NCBI GenBank assembly: GCA_964593375.1 | Contig: CAZQIF010000001.1 | Span: 98,185 to 162,184 of the forward strand | Direction of reading: 5' to 3' | DNA: 64,000 bases | From: an uncultured Candidatus Saccharibacteria bacterium | Lineage (GTDB): Bacteria > Patescibacteriota > Minisyncoccia > Phycocordibacterales > UBA918 | Shown: in pieces, positions 5,210-40,095 of the stretch | Layout of the letters: every line of letters starts with the position of its first letter | Position numbering within the stretch: the stretch's first letter is position 1 | Program-made: the position numbers and the translations under genes | The notes under the pieces: model-generated | Seen by the model: only the letters and a program-made list of their open reading frames with translations | Told to the model about the DNA's origin: nothing | Database searches by the model: none

Positions 5210-6328
5210 ATGAGCAGAGCAGTTATCGTATTAGTGGGAGGAGGAACCGGCGGGCATTTTTACCCGCTCATGAGTATTGCTGAAGCACTTAACACAGCTC
5301 CAAAAAAGCCGACACTTTACTACATGGGTCCAGACCCATACGACAAAGCGACGCTCGATAAAGAACAAATTAGTTTCATCAGTTGTCCTGCCGGAAAACG
5401 ACGCAAATATTTTTCGCTTCTTAACTACCTCGATTTCTTTAAAACGCTCAGTGGCATTTTTGTTGCAGTCATAAAACTCTTCTCCATATACCCTGATGTC
5501 ATCATTAGCAAAGGTGGGTACACGAGTGTACCGATTGTGCTCGCCGGATGGTTTCTCCGTATTCCGATTATCGTCCATGAATCTGATGCTGCGGTAGGTT
5601 CAGCAAATAAACTTGCCGCAAAATTTGCCCGCGTTGTCCTTGTTTCATACAAGGAGACTGTTCAATTTTTCCCTGCAGAGAAAACAGCATTTGTGGGAAA
5701 TCCCATACGACACGAACTCCGCACCCAACCCACAAGTGCACCCCATGAGCGTCTCGGTATTGAACCAACACTTCCCATGATTCTCGTCCTCGGCGGTTCG
5801 CAGGGTGCAGAGCGACTCAATGAACTTATTCTTGACTCACTCGATGAGCTTCTTGTTGATTTCACTATCGTGCATCAAACCGGCGAAAGACATTTCAATG
5901 TTGTGTCAGGCTCTGCGCATGGACTCGTTCCTAATCCTGAACTTTTTAAACGATATCATCCAGTCCCATTCCTCGGTCCTGATTTACTTAATGATGCACT
6001 CCATACCGCGACTCTCATTATTTCACGCGCAGGAAGTGGCACCATTCACGAAATTGCCATCCACGGCAAACCTGCAATTCTCATTCCGATTCCTGAGTCA
6101 ATAAGTCACGACCAGCGCACAAATGCATTCACCTATGCACGTTCTGGTGGTGCAATTGTAATGGAAGAATCCAATTTTAGTGACGGCTTGCTTCGAGCTG
6201 AAATTGACCGTATTATAGGAAATCCCGATATTTATAGCGAAATGTCGAGTTCAGCGCTCACCTTTGGGCGCGCAGATGCGGGGGATACAATTGCACAGAT
6301 TACACTTGAACTCGCCGAAACTCACTAA
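5210..6328 (+). CDS. murG: UDP-GlcNAc:lipid I N-acetylglucosaminyltransferase MurG
   Basis: The N-terminus GGGTGGHFYP matches MurG. It has a GT28 fold and sits within the dcw context. Confidence 0.9.
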   Translation: MSRAVIVLVGGGTGGHFYPLMSIAEALNTAPKKPTLYYMGPDPYDKATLDKEQISFISCPAGKRRKYFSLLNYLDFFKTLSGIFVAVIKLFSIYPDVIISKGGYTSVPIVLAGWFLRIPIIVHESDAAVGSANKLAAKFARVVLVSYKETVQFFPAEKTAFVGNPIRHELRTQPTSAPHERLGIEPTLPMILVLGGSQGAERLNELILDSLDELLVDFTIVHQTGERHFNVVSGSAHGLVPNPELFKRYHPVPFLGPDLLNDALHTATLIISRAGSGTIHEIAIHGKPAILIPIPESISHDQRTNAFTYARSGGAIVMEESNFSDGLLRAEIDRIIGNPDIYSEMSSSALTFGRADAGDTIAQITLELAETH

Positions 6329-10418: not shown

Positions 10419-11390
10419 ATGACAAAGAAAACTACGGGAAAAAATGTGTTTCAACTGCTACCCTACATTGAAGATTTTTTGCTGTATATCCAAGCAAACA
10501 ATTATTCAGAAGAAACTTTATATAACTACGAGCGCGACTTGCTGACGTTCGATGCTTTTCTTTATGATGAAATGAGTAACCTCCCCTTCTCGAGCATAAC
10601 CAAGCGAACGGTCGAACAGTACAAAGCATATTTAAATTCTCGTGATCGAAAAACTGCTTCAGGAGACGATTCTGAACAGCGATTGAAGAGTGGGTCCATT
10701 AATCGTGCACTGACCTCACTTCGCAGGTACCTTGCGTATCTCATCGACATGGACTATGAAGCGCCCGTTGTTCCAGGTTCAATTAAACTCCTTCGTATGG
10801 AGAAGAAGCATGGTCAGGTAGCAGAACTAAATGAACTCATCGAACTCATCGAGTCACCGATGAAATTCGAAAAGGATAAGAGGGTTGCCCTTCGTAATCG
10901 AGCAGCACTTGAAACACTTTTTGCGAGTGGTATGCGTATATCAGAACTCATCAACTTAAAGCGAAACCAACTTGATAAATCTGGCCGAATTTTTATCCAA
11001 GGAAAAGGTAAGAAGCAAAGATTTATCTACCTCACTGAGCGTGCAATTAAGCACATTGGTTTCTATTTAGCAGAGCGTACGGATGACTTCCCCTACCTGT
11101 TTATTCCCGAACGAGGACTCAATGTCAAAGTCAAAAACAAACACATTTCTCCGAATTACCTGCAGATGAAAATAAAAAAATACCGTGAACTACTCGGTAT
11201 TAATGTTCCAACTAGTGCCCACTCACTGCGTCACGGTTTTGCAACATATCTCGCAGAAAAAGGTGCAAACCCTGCTGCCATCCAAATTCTCCTCGGACAT
11301 GAGTCACTTGATACCACCACGAGATACGTGCACGCTTCAGATAAGTATGCCGAGAGTACCCATAAGCAGTTCCACCCATTAAAGAAATGA
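10419..11390 (+). CDS. Tyrosine site-specific recombinase, XerC/XerD family
   Basis: The catalytic motifs RISELINL, HSLRHGFAT and LLGHESLDTTTRYVH are present, the last containing the catalytic Tyr. Confidence 0.85.
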   Translation: MTKKTTGKNVFQLLPYIEDFLLYIQANNYSEETLYNYERDLLTFDAFLYDEMSNLPFSSITKRTVEQYKAYLNSRDRKTASGDDSEQRLKSGSINRALTSLRRYLAYLIDMDYEAPVVPGSIKLLRMEKKHGQVAELNELIELIESPMKFEKDKRVALRNRAALETLFASGMRISELINLKRNQLDKSGRIFIQGKGKKQRFIYLTERAIKHIGFYLAERTDDFPYLFIPERGLNVKVKNKHISPNYLQMKIKKYRELLGINVPTSAHSLRHGFATYLAEKGANPAAIQILLGHESLDTTTRYVHASDKYAESTHKQFHPLKK

Positions 11391-11406
11391 AAGACTACAC
11401 GGATAT

Positions 11407-12195
11407 TTAAAATAGTCCGTTGGCGACCTCCGACAACATATCTCGATACTTTGAATCATCTTTCGTCAAAATAATTTCAAGTGTTCTGTTCGTGCTCAGT
11501 TTTGATTCTATTTCAGTATGACGTGTGAGATACTCTTTAAGACTTTCCGGAATAATTTCGTCCTGTGAGATTACGTGAAGTTTCGGATATGCTGCTCGGA
11601 TTCGATTCTTGAGGAGCACATAGTGCGTACATCCGAGCACAAGCGTACTCGCCTCCCCCAATTTGGTATCTATCATATTTTTGAGATACATCATTGCCTC
11701 ATCAATTTTTTCACTTTCAAGAAATGGAACCAATTCTGGTGTTGCGATGGATGTCAGTTTAATAGGTTTCTTTTCATTTTTTGCATTAAGTTCGATATCG
11801 TATTTTTTTGAGTTCACTGTTCGGCACGTACCAATGAGCAAAACGTTATGTGCACCCGATGCGAGAATTGTTTCTACTGTTGGAATGATGACTCCAAGAA
11901 TACGCTTGTCTGCGTAGACATGTGGAATGAGTTCGTCTTGTATTCTCCTCAGTGTTTCAGCTGATGCAGTGTTGCACGCAACAACAACAAGACCAGCACC
12001 TCTACTGAAAAGTTCTTTTACTCCATGTAATGTGAATGTGTACACTTCCTCTTCTGTTTTGTTACCATAGGGGAGATTGGCAGTGTCACCATAATACAGA
12101 TAATCATACTCTGGGAGGAGTGCACGTACTGCTTTGAGAATCGTAAATCCTCCAATGCCGGAGTCGAGAAAACCAATTTTTGTATCCGTTTCCAT
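11407..12195 (-). CDS. murI: Glutamate racemase MurI
   Basis: FDSGIGG and LGCTHY motifs are present. Confidence 0.9.
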   Translation of the reverse strand: METDTKIGFLDSGIGGFTILKAVRALLPEYDYLYYGDTANLPYGNKTEEEVYTFTLHGVKELFSRGAGLVVVACNTASAETLRRIQDELIPHVYADKRILGVIIPTVETILASGAHNVLLIGTCRTVNSKKYDIELNAKNEKKPIKLTSIATPELVPFLESEKIDEAMMYLKNMIDTKLGEASTLVLGCTHYVLLKNRIRAAYPKLHVISQDEIIPESLKEYLTRHTEIESKLSTNRTLEIILTKDDSKYRDMLSEVANGLF

Positions 12196-25814: not shown

Positions 25815-25827
25815 CTATCTCAGTTAG

Positions 25828-25866
25828 AAAACCGCCCGCATGACTTCGTCATGCGGGCGGTTTTCG
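25828..25866. terminator. Bidirectional intrinsic terminator aaaaccgcccgcatgac..gtcatgcgggcggtttt
   Basis: A perfect stem flanked by A and T runs, placed between convergent genes. Confidence 0.8.
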
Positions 25867-34289: not shown

Positions 34290-34368
34290 AACGTGCCCGT
34301 GATTCTACTAGAAAACCCTAAAATATGCAACTAAAGAACGGTTGCTCTAATAAAACAATAATATGCTA

Positions 34369-34396
34369 TTGACTAATTTATAATCTATGATATGAT
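34369..34396 (+). promoter_or_regulatory. Putative promoter TTGACT-16 nt-TATGAT with RBS aggaga before the ATG at 34430
   Basis: Motifs read directly. Confidence 0.45.
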
Positions 34397-34429
34397 ATTT
34401 ATGAAGTTCACAACATACAGGAGAAGTTC

Positions 34430-34687
34430 ATGGACAAAACGAATAAGTACGGATGGATTCTTATGATTGTTGTCGGCCTATTGCTTATAGTTATCGCCGA
34501 ACGAGGCGATACGGTAAGCTCTGAGATTATCACGCTCGCGCAGACCGCGTGCACGACAAACGGAGGTCTGGACACAATCGAAACGAACCATGTGCCAGTC
34601 CTTGGCATAGACCTCCGGAGCGAGTATAGGGTTAGCTGTAAAAACGGCATGGCAGTCACCATGTCAAACCTGAAACTCGGAAAGTAG
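34430..34687 (+). CDS. Hypothetical small secreted/membrane-anchored protein (85 aa, two Cys)
   Basis: Supported by a promoter, an RBS, an N-terminal hydrophobic segment and a downstream terminator. Confidence 0.45.
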   Translation: MDKTNKYGWILMIVVGLLLIVIAERGDTVSSEIITLAQTACTTNGGLDTIETNHVPVLGIDLRSEYRVSCKNGMAVTMSNLKLGK

Positions 34688-34693
34688 CATCCC

Positions 34694-34733
34694 AAGACCC
34701 GCCCACGAGAAAGACTCGTCCGCGGGTCTTTTT
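34694..34733 (+). terminator. Intrinsic terminator gacccgc...gcgggtc followed by ttttt
   Basis: A stem-loop followed by a T run. Confidence 0.6.
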
Positions 34734-34743
34734 CTTATTTTAA

Positions 34744-34770
34744 TTATTTAGGGGTCCGACCCCTAAATAA
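34744..34770. repeat. Hairpin repeat ttatttaggggtccgacccctaaataa, copy 1 of 3
   Basis: A perfect hairpin immediately 3' of the stop of a minus-strand gene. Copies lie at 36100-36124 and, half-length, at 39405-39422. Confidence 0.7.
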
Positions 34771-36003
34771 TTACTGAGGATCCTGGGGCTTCTCGAGCGG
34801 TGATGATTTTCGCTTACCGCACGCCTGACACACGGGAAGATCTACAAATCGTGCGTTATGGCAGTGTTCGCAACTTGCATAGACTTGATACCCACAACGT
34901 GGACAAAATACCATTGTGTTATCGAGCGTAAATGAGCACTTTGGACACTTGTGGTCTTTGAGGCGTCTGATTGCGACAACAGCGCTGTTGTACACGCGCT
35001 TTTGAATGACATACACAATCCCTCCAAAAAGCAGAATAACGAGCACCACTGACCCGTAATAGAGCACGTAGCGCAATATGGCGACCTGCATGAAGATATC
35101 AATAATCAGTTGAATGAGTGCGTGTGGAATAATTTCGTAGAGGAACATACCCACAACTTGGAGGAATAGGAGTGAGGAAGCGACAAAAATTGCACCTGCA
35201 ATAATCGTATACGGGCTATTTCCTTTCTTGAAACGGAAGTAGTAGCGCATGCTGAGGACAAAGAACGGAATGATGAAAAGCAGAGTGAGTCCAAACACCT
35301 TGAGGCGATACCAATTCACTGCTTTGTTGTAGAGTGAGAGGGCTTTGTCATACTGTGCCTCGTAAGTTGGAACCTTCGTTTGTATCTGCGCAAGAAGTGC
35401 ATCTCTTTCTCGCGTGAGTGCAATTACCTGTGCTTGGCGTAATGCTATTTCATCGTCAACGGTTACAACGGCATTTTGTTCTGTCCCCACATCGAATGCA
35501 CCCTCGATTTGTGCCTGTCGTTCTTGCAGACTAATGTCGTAGTTTGAGACTGCCTGACTCCGCTTATATTTAAGCTGTTCTATAGTGTTGCTCAAGGTTG
35601 AGACTTCAGTACTTTTTGCAAAATACTGTTTCAGCAAGGGTTCCACCGAAGTGATACTGCTACTTACACCAGATTCATTTTCATAGGTACTGAATGTACA
35701 GTTCCCTTTTTGAAGTGATGAATTCGAGTAATATCCATAGTCGTAACCGTAGCCAGAGTACTCATTCGTGTTCGTTTGTACATTAAGTACGGAAGCGAAC
35801 TCACGAGCGCAAGAAGAAATGGTTACCGGTCTTTCTGGAATACTGCGTAAATCTCCAAAGACTGTTTGTGAAATTCCAACAATAAAAAGTGCCATCAAAA
35901 TGAGCAGAAAATATCCAATTTTTGTTGTCTTTTTTTCGCTTATCTCCTCATACGCATCTCCATCTACCGGGCTCTGTTTCTTACCAAAAAACCACATATA
36001 CAA
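34771..36003 (-). CDS. Hypothetical membrane protein with a Tyr/Gly-rich segment, a coiled coil, multiple TM helices and a C-terminal double zinc ribbon
   Basis: CPKC...CPRCG...CEHC...CQACG at the C-terminus. I recognise no family. Confidence 0.5.
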   Translation of the reverse strand: MYMWFFGKKQSPVDGDAYEEISEKKTTKIGYFLLILMALFIVGISQTVFGDLRSIPERPVTISSCAREFASVLNVQTNTNEYSGYGYDYGYYSNSSLQKGNCTFSTYENESGVSSSITSVEPLLKQYFAKSTEVSTLSNTIEQLKYKRSQAVSNYDISLQERQAQIEGAFDVGTEQNAVVTVDDEIALRQAQVIALTRERDALLAQIQTKVPTYEAQYDKALSLYNKAVNWYRLKVFGLTLLFIIPFFVLSMRYYFRFKKGNSPYTIIAGAIFVASSLLFLQVVGMFLYEIIPHALIQLIIDIFMQVAILRYVLYYGSVVLVILLFGGIVYVIQKRVYNSAVVAIRRLKDHKCPKCSFTLDNTMVFCPRCGYQVYASCEHCHNARFVDLPVCQACGKRKSSPLEKPQDPQ

Positions 36004-36099
36004 TGTTTAATACAATAAATACTTCACCATTAATACTACCACCCGCTCCTCTGCGATTATTGTTCACATCTATATAAAGTGGACAGATATAAATCCACC

Positions 36100-36124
36100 T
36101 ATTTAGGGGTCTGACCCCTAAATA
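36100..36124. repeat. Hairpin repeat tatttaggggtctgacccctaaata, copy 2
   Basis: A perfect hairpin immediately 3' of the rmuC stop. Confidence 0.7.
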
Positions 36125-36126
36125 AA

Positions 36127-37805: not shown

Positions 37806-37875
37806 TTTGAAACTGGATTCCGGCTCGTCGGCCGGAACGACAACCACCGCGGAAAGTGAAACTTTCCGCGGTGGT
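37805..37875. repeat. Structured repeat element, copy E: ctggattccggctcgtcggccggaacgac-aaccaccgcggaaagtgaaactttccgcggtggtt
   Basis: Two perfect hairpins. It is homologous to the DR unit of copies A and B. Confidence 0.7.
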
Positions 37876-37935
37876 TTGCGTTTTACACAATGTATGGTAT
37901 AATAATACTCAGATAAACCAACAAAGGAGTACATC

Positions 37936-38151
37936 GTGGGCGTACGAAAACGAATTACGCTTACCCGAGAAATGCTCGGGCGACTGCGCGTAGCAGTTCG
38001 CTTGGCAAACAGGGACCAACATCAAGCAACCACTGCTGTTATGACTTCTCTCCAGGGAGTACCGTTCGGCGAGAGTTACATTCGAATTCGAGACGAAATG
38101 ATCGTTCGTTTGAAGAAAACCATCGCAAATCAAAACCACAGGAGGACGTGA
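37936..38151 (+). CDS. Small basic protein, possibly ribbon-helix-helix-like (RKRITLTREMLGRLRVAV)
   Basis: A GTG start 7 nt after RBS aaaggag. It overlaps the next ORF, suggesting an operon. Confidence 0.35.
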   Translation: MGVRKRITLTREMLGRLRVAVRLANRDQHQATTAVMTSLQGVPFGESYIRIRDEMIVRLKKTIANQNHRRT

Positions 38152-38408
38152 TGGCAACAAAAAAGCCGAAGCCTGTTCCCCCACCCCATGTCGCTCGTGC
38201 AAAACTTAAGGGAGATACAGAGGCCCTACGTGCGATGGGACGAATTGGCGGCAAAAAGGCAGCGCTATCGAAGGCTCGTCAAAAGTTCCTTGCGGAACTT
38301 CACAAGGAACTTGACGAACTCCAGAAGCAACTCGAGGAGGAGTTTCGTCAACAAGAAATGTACGACAAGGCCGTTCAGGCCAACGAACACACCCATCCTG
38401 TCGACTGA
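38151..38408 (+). CDS. Hypothetical small protein (Lys/Pro-rich N-terminus, coiled coil)
   Basis: RBS aggagg lies 5 nt upstream. A terminator follows at 38423-38459. Confidence 0.4.
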   Translation: MATKKPKPVPPPHVARAKLKGDTEALRAMGRIGGKKAALSKARQKFLAELHKELDELQKQLEEEFRQQEMYDKAVQANEHTHPVD

Positions 38409-38422
38409 GACTGAGTGGTACG

Positions 38423-38459
38423 GACCCGAGGCGCATCGCGCTTCGGGTCTTTCTTTTTC
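38423..38459 (+). terminator. Intrinsic terminator gacccgaggcgc..gcgcttcgggtc followed by a T run
   Basis: Read directly. Confidence 0.65.
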
Positions 38460-38531
38460 CTTGACATTAAAATGAATTTGTTTGATTATAGTCGTTGGCA
38501 ATTTGTGACGTAGTTCATTAGGAGAAGTACG

Positions 38532-38858
38532 ATGGCAAGGACGAAACCGTATGATGGGCATTTCAGAATTAAGCACAATGAGATGCCTGGAATAGACACA
38601 ATCGGAGCACGAATCGATGATTGCCTCACTCCGAAAGGAACCTTCGACAAGCTTTACTCCGCAATTGATGCTGTACTAGATCCTGAGGATTTTTTCGAGA
38701 TTGCATACACGAGAAGCAGAGCTCTTGTTCTTTGGTGCCGAATCAAAAATCAATCGCCCGAGAACCTAAAAAAGAAGACGGCAACTATTCGGCGGGCGAT
38801 GGCGAGGGTTGGTTTCAAGATGAGCCCCTTCGTTTCAATCTTGGGCTCGAAGCACTAA
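38532..38858 (+). CDS. Hypothetical protein (108 aa)
   Basis: RBS aggaga precedes the ORF. It is followed by the hairpin cgggcggttc..gaaccgcccg. Confidence 0.4.
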   Translation: MARTKPYDGHFRIKHNEMPGIDTIGARIDDCLTPKGTFDKLYSAIDAVLDPEDFFEIAYTRSRALVLWCRIKNQSPENLKKKTATIRRAMARVGFKMSPFVSILGSKH

Positions 38859-38879
38859 ACAGGGAGAACAATTTTCAAA

Positions 38880-38910
38880 CGGGCGGTTCCAAGCAACTTG
38901 GAACCGCCCG
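38880..38910. repeat. Hairpin repeat cgggcggttccaagcaacttggaaccgcccg, copy 1 of 2
   Basis: A perfect 11-bp stem. The same stem recurs at 39370-39400. Confidence 0.7.
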
Positions 38911-38986
38911 TAATTTGTCAGATTGACAAATTGCACCATTTGCTCAATAATCCATGCCAGTACTCTCACCAACAAAGGAGCTTCTC

Positions 38987-39355
38987 ATGAAGAAAAACCC
39001 ACTGAGTAAAGGTGTGTTCTTGATAAAGGGCAGTGACGTAGGTAGCTTTCAACAACCAAAGCGTCGCTACGGCAACAAGTCATCGTTAATCACTGACATC
39101 AACACGGAAAATGAAAGTGCGCTTACTTCACTGGGAATCGGTGAACCCGTTTCAGTAATCATCGCGAACAATTTGGAAGCAAAGTTGCACTTAGATTTTG
39201 AACTATGGGGACTGGCACTTCATGTTCATGTCGAGTCAATTCAAGACTTACAAAAGTTCATCAATGTTCACTCACAGCTGGAGAGCGCCTTCTTGAAAAG
39301 TGGCTTCCGGATGGACACTCCCTTTTGCCTCTTCAGTCGGCCAGCAAAGAAGTAG
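38987..39355 (+). CDS. Hypothetical protein (122 aa)
   Basis: RBS aaaggag precedes the ORF. A hairpin and T run follow. The ORF is open from 38954. Confidence 0.4.
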   Translation: MKKNPLSKGVFLIKGSDVGSFQQPKRRYGNKSSLITDINTENESALTSLGIGEPVSVIIANNLEAKLHLDFELWGLALHVHVESIQDLQKFINVHSQLESAFLKSGFRMDTPFCLFSRPAKK

Positions 39356-39369
39356 TTCTACAGACGCAA

Positions 39370-39422
39370 CGGGCGGTTCGGAGTTTCTCTGAACCGCCCG
39401 TGTTTTATTTAGGGGTCCGACC
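39370..39422. repeat. Composite element: hairpin cgggcggttcggagtttctctgaaccgcccg plus T run, followed by a half copy of the atttaggggtccgacc repeat
   Basis: Read directly. It lies between the convergent hypothetical gene and truB. Confidence 0.65.
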
Positions 39423-39423
39423 A

Positions 39424-40095
39424 CTACATAGGGTCTTCTAATGATTGTGCGTCTTCAATTTTGAACTCCCCTACTTTTGTACGTCTCAGATTTTGAAGTG
39501 TTGCTGGGTAGCCGAGTCGTCGTCCAATTTCTTCACCGAGCGAGCGTATGTACGTACCACTTCCCACATTGAACTTTACAGTTAGTACCGCACGATTATT
39601 TTCATACGTAGTATTCAAAAGTTCAATTGCGGTCACTTCCATAGCACGCACCGGTAAGTCGGTTACTTCCTCGCCTGTTTTCTCTGCTTTGCGTGCTCGC
39701 TTATACATCGGCACTCCATCTTTTTTGATTGCTGAGTATGCTGAAACTTCGAGTTCAATCACTCCAACCATGCTCATGAGTACTTCAGAAACTTTTTCTG
39801 ATGGTAGTTCGGGAACGTCACAACTTTCAAGAATTTCACCCTCCATATCTCCAGTACTCCGTTGTTCCCCGATTAGAACTTCTGCAACATACTCTTTTGA
39901 AAGTTTGATGTAGTCGCTCAGTTTTTTTGTCCCCTGCCCCACACCAATAATCATGAGTCCGCTTGCAAGCGGGTCGAGTGTGCCAGCATGCCCCATCTTG
40001 CGAATGCCCAGCTTCCTCCTTAGCCTACGAATCACATCAAAAGACGTTATTCCTTTTGGTTTATCGATAATAAGTATGTCAGAGGCTGTTTCCAT
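39424..40095 (-). CDS. truB: tRNA pseudouridine(55) synthase TruB
   Basis: HAGTLDPLASGL, with the catalytic Asp, is present. Confidence 0.9.
   Translation of the reverse strand: METASDILIIDKPKGITSFDVIRRLRRKLGIRKMGHAGTLDPLASGLMIIGVGQGTKKLSDYIKLSKEYVAEVLIGEQRSTGDMEGEILESCDVPELPSEKVSEVLMSMVGVIELEVSAYSAIKKDGVPMYKRARKAEKTGEEVTDLPVRAMEVTAIELLNTTYENNRAVLTVKFNVGSGTYIRSLGEEIGRRLGYPATLQNLRRTKVGEFKIEDAQSLEDPM

Follow-up and report, generated by a model that had tools for sequence, protein, structure and literature searches.

The 64-kb window examined here (the whole stretch of DNA that was analysed, whose positions serve as coordinates throughout) is part of the genome of an uncultivated member of the Patescibacteria (Candidate Phyla Radiation, CPR). 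Between two convergent genes, yqeY (PF09424, E 2.5e-39) and truB (PF01509, E 1e-36), it carries an islet of four small genes, orf1 to orf4, and the gene content of this yqeY-truB slot is hypervariable among related genomes. A preliminary description of this DNA had listed four open reading frames (ORFs) of 71, 85, 108 and 122 amino acids (aa) with good Shine-Dalgarno (SD) sites and an overlap between the first two (TGATG), and all of these are present. The features of the islet, with the isoelectric points (pI) of the predicted proteins, are as follows:

37842..37876, forward strand: predicted intrinsic terminator of yqeY, a 16-bp stem AACCACCGCGGAAAGT with loop GAA, then TGCGTTTT (-34.4 kcal/mol, z -6.9)
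37894..37902, forward strand: candidate promoter P1 for orf1-orf2, extended -10 TGgTATAAT, consensus match only
37936..38151, forward strand: orf1, 71 aa, GTG start, pI 11.9, SD site AAAGGAG
38151..38408, forward strand: orf2, 85 aa, SD site AGGAGG, coupled to orf1 by the TGATG overlap
38422..38450, forward strand: putative terminator T1 of the orf1-orf2 unit, a 13-bp stem, then TTCTTTTTCC
38461..38489, forward strand: promoter-like sequence P2 for orf3, TTGACA-17-GATTAT
38532..38858, forward strand: orf3, 108 aa, pI 9.7
38879..38911, forward strand: hairpin T2 after orf3, ACGGGCGGTTCCAAG-caa-CTTGGAACCGCCCGT, with a weak U-tract (AAUUUGU)
38912..38932, no strand: candidate operator, a perfect 9+3+9 palindrome AATTTGTCA-gat-TGACAAATT (21 bp, AATTTGTCAGATTGACAAATT)
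38923..38951, forward strand: promoter-like sequence P3 for orf4, TTGACA-17-AATAAT, 11/12 matches
38987..39355, forward strand: orf4, 122 aa, pI 9.1, SD site AAAGGAG
39369..39401, forward strand: hairpin T2' after orf4, ACGGGCGGTTCGGAG-ttt-CTCTGAACCGCCCGT, then GTTTTATTTA, with the form of a canonical intrinsic terminator
39406..39428, no strand: degenerate hairpin of a second family (TATTTAGGGGTC...), overlapping the truB stop codon

Read together, these features suggest that the region is divided into three autonomous transcription units. Each would combine a sigma-70-like promoter and an SD site with one or two small, basic, cytoplasmic proteins and would close with a terminator-like hairpin, the promoter and terminator activities being deduced from the DNA itself. 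The first unit would consist of orf1 translationally coupled to orf2, and the second and third of monocistronic orf3 and orf4, respectively. The SD site of orf3 is AGGAGAAG, and in all four genes the site lies 6-8 nt 5' of the start codon; by window codon usage the annotated frame ranks top of the six in four ORFs out of four. A promoter scan gave an alternative to P1 (TTTACA-16-AATACT, 37882-37909). The public annotation of orf4 is a 133-aa product starting at 38954; the positions of the SD site (38974-38980) and of the putative -10 box of P3 (38946-38951) speak instead for the 122-aa start at 38987. The four terminator-like hairpins start 13-36 nt past a stop codon, with folding energies of -25 to -34 kcal/mol and z-scores of -4.5 to -7.6; T2 and T2' begin 13-20 nt after the stop codons of their genes, and T2 precedes a promoter. 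U-tracts are good at 37842-37876, 38422-38450 and 39369-39401, and poor at 38879-38911. In the two closest relatives, L002 and L202 (see later), the grammar at the matching junctions is identical (stop codon, hairpin, T-tract, TTGACA, 17 nt, -10 box, SD site, ATG), and since it is shared by the window, L002 and L202, the hairpins can be said to lie where intrinsic terminators belong.

To place the islet among its relatives, the loci around the 80 best genomic matches to the YqeY of the window (43-81% identity) were used, in a comparison collection with one genome per species. The 80 metagenome-assembled genomes matched in this way carry the source labels Paceibacteria, Kaiserbacteria, Nomurabacteria, Yonathbacteria or the generic 'Patescibacteria'. 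The order of yqeY, gap, truB and a gene for a 411-aa protein, with yqeY reading into the gap from one side and the other two genes reading towards it from the other, is found in 21 fetched loci and in L202, with a gap of 284-2002 bp. The small ORFs in the gap differ in nearly every genome, so that the islet is variable across relatives and is not a conserved housekeeping segment, in agreement with its first reading. In an all-against-all phmmer comparison, the slot ORFs fell into ten families of 2-4 members and many singletons, and 53 plausible slot proteins of the relatives gave no Pfam or PADLOC match beyond chance (best PADLOC E 6e-4). The slot spans a family-level clade of Patescibacteria (Paceibacteria/Kaiserbacteria-like). 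In one relative, L017, the slot (10896-11804) has taken in an insertion sequence (IS) element with a 302-aa rve-type (DDE) transposase.

The only recurrent resident among the four genes of the window is orf2, which is found in ten genomes. In nine (L018, L038, L005, L034, L025, L031, L006, L026 and L202) its homologue lies directly after yqeY, and there is no orf1-like gene there. Relatives of orf3 are limited to L002 and L202, where each is the last gene before truB; these two loci are collinear from gene 3 through truB, and their first cassettes are unrelated. For the orf3-like gene, the comparison of L002 with L202 gives a ratio of nonsynonymous to synonymous substitution (dN/dS) of about 0.09, with 71% of the aa identical, which is comparable to truB (0.08, 78%) and indicates that the protein is under purifying selection. 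By their truB and yqeY identities the window, L002 and L202 are about equally related, yet the window and L002 share only 25% identity in orf3, against 70% in truB and 81% in yqeY. What the window has is thus no simple orthologue but a paralogue or a strongly diverged allele, and this divergence points to an exchange of alleles or cassettes.

Despite their differing coding content, the window and L002 have conserved junctions. L002 keeps the 3' arm of T1, its T-tract and the subsequent TTGACA, and the ATGGTATAAT core that follows the yqeY terminator in the window is retained at the same junction in L002. Three of the four genes are atypical in base composition and codon usage: the GC content at third codon positions (GC3) of orf1, orf3 and orf4 is 0.49-0.52 (orf3 0.51, orf4 0.52) compared with 0.405 +/- 0.054 in window genes, and their codon scores are 0.07, 0.02 and 0.01, respectively, while that of orf2 (0.225) is typical (0.20 +/- 0.06 in typical genes). 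Taken as a whole, orf2 appears to be an older resident, and orf1, orf3 and orf4 are probably young or recently exchanged, lineage-restricted genes set in a fixed regulatory scaffold.

The four proteins, all of them basic (pI 9.1-11.9), contain no hydrophobic segment and are soluble, and none has a match above noise in Pfam, PHROG, NCBIfam, PADLOC or the PDB sequences; Rfam at a permissive threshold returned noise only. In this respect the earlier account of a compact modular layout of uncharacterized genes is borne out by both the anatomy and the library scans. The sole detectable relative of orf1 is in L004, where a 140-aa protein (L004:10585-11007) occupies the same slot position and resembles orf1 in its middle part. 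This protein consists of an orf1-like core and a tail that resembles, over 28 aa ending in GIPEDDR, the C-terminus of orf2-type proteins in L005 and L006. The L004 protein may thus be an orf1-orf2 fusion, which would be a weak hint of joint action. A ribbon-helix-helix (RHH) fold had been proposed for orf1, and this proposal found no backing: there is no Pfam or NCBIfam match at E<=1 and no PDB match, the similarity to Arc, CopG and Mnt does not exceed z 1.35, and the likeness comes down to eight residues of the CopG N-terminus, where the L004 homologue has KHKSTLDDD and not KRITLT. The orf2 protein has a basic N-terminus with the motif PPxV...GDxxALxAMG+xGG, which its homologues share; its middle is charged and helical, and a THP[VI]D motif lies near the C-terminus. 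The family as a whole (nine members) has no match above noise in Pfam, NCBIfam, PADLOC or PDB. A resemblance of the orf2 motif to KGG stress proteins was considered and rejected (hhalign probability 6.9% over 11 columns).

The model of orf3, of moderate confidence, has residues 1-21 disordered, followed by a beta-alpha-beta-beta-alpha-beta ferredoxin-like domain, so the predicted fold is, at that level of confidence, a generic ferredoxin-like one, and no significant structural match was found in BFVD. Single-sequence searches of 5.8 billion clustered proteins with orf3 and orf4 returned only the queries themselves. A profile of orf3 and its L002 relative added one member, which makes a family of three (window, L002 and L202) among the 5.8 billion proteins. 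For orf4, a HMMER search of 1.84 billion representatives gave the protein itself and a marginal match to the leucine-rich repeats (LRR) of a 2304-aa NACHT-LRR protein, which was judged a compositional or repeat artefact, and orf4 thus stands as an apparent true orphan among these representatives. Its structure model has a predicted local distance difference test (pLDDT) score of 43 and is unusable. The ferredoxin-like fold of orf3, the flanking hairpins and an HVH motif in orf4 brought an HUH/IS200-type transposase to mind, and this candidate was rejected: a 99%-identical variant has Tyr in place of the second His, there is no Y1_Tnp match, and the proteins flanked by such hairpins elsewhere are unrelated. 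Paralogy is undetectable between orf3 and orf4, between orf1 and orf2, and between gene 3 and the orf3-like gene. No relatives of orf1, orf3 or orf4 were found in IMG/VR and INPHARED, and none of orf2 in INPHARED, the one phage collection searched with it.

The 21-bp palindrome that follows T2 lies over the -35 box of P3, the promoter-like sequence of orf4, and occurs as a single copy in the window. Its half-site AATTTGT is also present twice in the orf3 promoter region (38475 and 38500), so that four of the 20 window copies fall within 460 bp. The palindrome may be an operator, possibly one shared by the two genes, and the very basic orf1 protein is a weakly supported candidate for its binding over the orf4 promoter.

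The preliminary description had also reported a common stem in the hairpins after the third and fourth genes, and this is correct: T2 and T2' (38879-38911 and 39369-39401) are 15-bp stems with 3-nt loops, including one G.U pair in T2', and their lower 11-12 bp are identical (ACGGGCGGTTC/GAACCGCCCGT). The folding energy is about -29 kcal/mol for both, with z-scores of -7.6 and -5.5, respectively. The 11-mer ACGGGCGGTTC occurs at the four arm positions only in the 64 kb, a count reached in 0/100 shuffles. The two copies diverge in the loop and in the apical 4 bp, where pairing is kept (CAAG/CTTG versus GGAG/CTCT), and a further hairpin at 25827-25865 has AACCGCCCG in common with the pair. Three same-stem hairpin families of 2-3 copies each were found in the window, the T2/T2' pair and two others. 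One of these two, AACCACCG(C)GGAAAG, is represented at 693-727, 1257-1287 and 37842-37876, the last being the yqeY terminator; in this third copy both arms carry an extra CG, which amounts to a compensated indel, and the two other copies bracket a 119-aa coiled-coil ORF (797-1156) without a Pfam match. The other, TATTTAGGGGTC..GACCCCTAAATA, has intact copies at 34741-34773 and 36100-36124 and the degenerate one at 39406-39428, all three at the 3' ends of minus-strand genes and overlapping their stop codons.

Stem sharing of this kind extends to the relatives. The last gene of the slot is bracketed by same-stem hairpins elsewhere, with a stem that is specific to the lineage (AAGGCGCCA in L002, AAAGGCACC/AAAGGCGCCA in L202, AAACCGCCTG in L035 and CCCGAAACG in L006). 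A survey of 82 loci (L002-L081, L202 and the window; 1.32 Mb) yielded 493 hairpins, and with sharing defined as a common 9-mer, 1.09% of the within-locus pairs shared a stem compared with 0.17% of the between-genome pairs (6.3-fold). Nine of the 15 sharing pairs were adjacent, against 2.95 +/- 1.47 under permutation, and nine was reached in 1/2000 permutations. Same-stem pairs also bracket rplU in L025 (6231/6957) and rpmA in L026 (1321/2003), which indicates a lineage-wide terminator habit and not a signature of cassette recombination. In the window, a same-stem pair brackets the gene for a 410-aa zinc-ribbon protein (34771-36003); this gene lies between rplU and rmuC and is an insertion in comparison with L202 and L025. 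A metagenome scan for the T2/T2' stem found it on more than 120 unrelated, mostly high-GC contigs, in single copies and often with T-runs after it; such scattered single copies mean that the stem sequence is generic and that the scan is uninformative on origin. We conclude that the hairpins of the islet are, as far as position and fold can tell, terminators, and that neighbouring ones in this clade are probably often copies of each other.

Some other observations were made alongside this survey. The insertion around the zinc-ribbon gene (34290-36126) amounts to about 1.8 kb compared with L202 and L025; its 410-aa product is a membrane protein whose C-terminal part is a double zinc ribbon, and the insertion may also hold an 85-aa membrane ORF (34430-34687). 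Locus L002 has two AT-rich palindromes with 20-bp stems, CCACTTATATTATAATTCCC-catg-GGGAATTATAATATAAGTGG, at L002:7907 and L002:13749, about 5.8 kb apart. In a more distant relative, L060, four hairpin stems at 5298, 7952, 8463 and 11634 share the 10-mer GGAATTTTCC over about 6 kb.

The genes around the islet encode, upstream, an S41 peptidase, CorA, CysS, DnaB, RecR, L21, the 410-aa zinc-ribbon membrane protein, RmuC and YqeY, and downstream, TruB, a 411-aa thioredoxin-like membrane protein, a YgjP-like protein, Pif1 helicase, tRNA-Glu, a GNAT protein and a U32 peptidase. No integrase, transposase or defence gene was found within about 10 kb of the islet, the locus is recombinase-free in L202 too, and no RAYT- or IS200-like gene is present in the window neighbourhood.

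Several described systems resemble the locus in part. Integron cassettes are generally promoterless and are expressed from a common Pc promoter, and their attC sites are imperfect palindromes of 57-141 nt with R''/L''-L'/R' boxes, extrahelical bases and a GTTRRRY core. The islet is like an integron, or a cluster of attC sites lacking an integron integrase (CALIN), in being a row of small, mostly unknown genes, each with a hairpin repeat that is similar within the genome and different between genomes. It differs in having no intI, in the 33-nt hairpins with perfect or near-perfect stems and without R/L boxes or extrahelical bases, in the limitation to two repeat copies, and in the provision of every unit with its own TTGACA-17-TAnnnT-type site right after the preceding terminator; inspection by eye and folding showed GTT followed by CCAA or CGGA. 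The orf1-orf2 pair has in common with type II toxin-antitoxin (TA) modules that carry an RHH antitoxin two small, overlapping, co-oriented genes with one promoter, one terminator and a very basic upstream protein, but there is no RHH or toxin family match, and orf2 occurs alone in relatives, so that the pair is not co-inherited.

By analogy, the closest described kind of locus is the short, recombinase-free, hypervariable island between purF and radC that carries acrIIA22 in clostridial CAG-217, and in which small ORFs vary (Forsberg et al. 2021, PMC8545432). Those islands vary among strains with >=98% identical flanks, and many of their ORFs have phage homologues (PMC8545432). Both kinds have two conserved flanks, small and mostly unknown ORFs (0.3-2 kb of them here), a high turnover, one gene kept far more often than the rest (acrIIA22 there, orf2 here) and no integrase or transposase. 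In the yqeY-truB slot, however, the variation is at the species level, no viral homologue was found in the phage collections searched, and orf2 is in only 10 of about 22 slots. Families of repeated stem-loop structures (SLS), including those of the repetitive extragenic palindrome (REP) type, have long been known in bacterial intergenic regions (Cozzuto et al. 2008, PMC2267715). The hairpins described here resemble them as GC-rich structures at gene ends whose stem recurs in one genome, with three families in 64 kb and a terminator-like position and energy. They differ in having 2-3 copies per family in the 64 kb, preferentially adjacent and bracketing a single gene, and, compared with REP, bacterial interspersed mosaic elements (BIME) and miniature inverted-repeat transposable elements (MITE), in sharing only the lower stem, without conserved flanks.

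The explanation we favour, with a probability of roughly 0.6, is that the islet represents what a hypervariable yqeY-truB slot contains in this genome, arranged as three expression units with copied terminators. A unit added downstream of an existing terminator would end up with a copy of that terminator, and the result would be a terminator-gene-terminator footprint, which would explain the stem identity of T2 and T2'. Copying of terminators without paralogy of the genes is favoured because housekeeping genes show the same pattern. It is rather unlikely that the orf3 and orf4 units are instead ancient tandem duplicates, with proteins that diverged past recognition and a lower stem kept by selection against single substitutions. 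The two units do have the same architecture, similar lengths and a hairpin start-to-start distance of 490 bp; their GC3 values and codon scores are near-identical and equally atypical; their predicted element orders are alike (b-a-b-b-a-b in orf3, b..a-b-b-a-b in orf4); both C-termini read G-F-[KR]-M-x(1,2)-P-F; and the apical stem differences of T2 and T2' are compensatory. Yet no similarity between the proteins was detected (Smith-Waterman z 0.37, BLASTP E 34, hhalign probability 0.1%), the DNA of the units beyond the hairpins reaches only z 1.3, the pLDDT of 43 for the orf4 model makes a fold comparison weak, and housekeeping genes that are not duplicated are flanked by same-stem pairs as well. 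Recombination sites of the attC kind, with units of a hitherto undescribed CPR cassette exchange moving as circles and a hairpin duplicated on both sides of each insert, would account for the terminator-gene-terminator footprint and its lineage-specific stems in the same slot of the window, L002, L202, L035 and L006 and around the 410-aa gene, for the enrichment of adjacent hairpins with the same stem, and for conserved junctions between unconserved coding content. Such sites are nevertheless highly improbable: no integrase or other recombinase gene is nearby, the stems are short and perfect without attC features, each unit has its own promoter, rplU and rpmA are not mobile and are flanked by same-stem pairs, the identical stem is a generic terminator found in single copies on unrelated, mostly high-GC metagenome contigs, and the apical parts of T2 and T2' differ, which is unexpected after a recent duplication of a site. 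The suggestion in the preliminary description that the hairpins mark cassette boundaries is not supported on the same evidence, namely their terminator-like nature, the same-stem pairs at rplU, rpmA and the 410-aa gene, and the lack of an integrase or transposase within about 10 kb.

Two further readings concern what the genes do. The slot could be a conflict locus for anti-phage defence or anti-defence, with orf2 as an anchor and fast-turnover small effectors around it. Its conserved flanks, single recurrent gene, quick turnover of small ORFs and lack of a recombinase match the published purF-radC/AcrIIA22 islands (PMC8545432), and the extreme divergence of orf3 relative to truB between the window and L002 (25% and 70% identity) and the atypical codon usage of orf1, orf3 and orf4 agree with it. 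We consider this role improbable, since PADLOC gave no matches, phage relatives are absent in the collections searched (orf2 in INPHARED alone) where many ORFs of the AcrIIA22 islands had phage homologues, and the neighbourhood is one of housekeeping genes and not a defence island. The defence module proposed at the outset is likewise without a PADLOC match, at E<=1 for the four proteins and beyond chance for the 53 slot proteins. As for an addiction module, orf1 and orf2 could form a type II TA pair of a DNA-binding antitoxin and a toxin, with orf3 and orf4 as passengers; both genes are small and overlap at stop and start, orf1 is upstream and very basic with an N-terminal KRITLT that resembles KRLTIT of CopG, and the L004 protein, in which an orf1-like domain is fused to an orf2-type C-terminal tail, suggests a functional link. 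A pair of this kind has very little probability, because the orf2 homologues that stand alone after yqeY in nine genomes would not be viable as toxins, the orf2 protein is helical, highly charged and of low complexity and matches no toxin family, and orf1 matches no RHH, helix-turn-helix or AbrB profile; the addiction module accordingly finds no support. A broader and very doubtful idea is that CPR terminator hairpins double as recombination or template-switch sites for integrase-free swapping of units, in which case the slot would be a landing pad for fast-evolving proteins, possibly of host/phage conflict.

Several points weigh against the reading of the islet as slot content in three units with copied terminators. 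The sequence 3' of T2, AAUUUGUCAG, is a poor U-tract, and the promoters and terminators are putative assignments from consensus matches only. As the collection holds one genome per species, the turnover is visible at the species level and not among strains. Two near-identical contigs, L001 and L205 (independent short-read assemblies SRR12762274 and SRR11674048), have the same islet genes with one substitution each, A>T at the first base of the T2 hairpin (38879) in one and H81Y in orf4 (39227) in the other, and these single substitutions are uninformative on selection or cassette polymorphism. Stems with an A-tract and GGCGCC recur across genomes and there are 206 between-genome sharing pairs, so that some of the sharing reflects compositional convergence. 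The copying itself could be the result of a duplication in place or of a recombination event at the hairpin. The best guess at a function, small nucleic-acid-binding or regulatory accessory proteins, is weakly supported by the high pI and the nearby palindrome.

With four proteins of no demonstrated function, the immediate biological impact is modest. The slot nevertheless holds more than ten unrelated families of small proteins across about 22 species, with no representation in family, structure, phage or defence libraries, and the region is a well-delimited example of where gene novelty gathers in the reduced genomes of Patescibacteria. It would be a convenient natural system for following how small genes arise, are exchanged and disappear in CPR bacteria, and its stem-sharing neighbouring terminators suggest a simple route by which new transcription units may be insulated.

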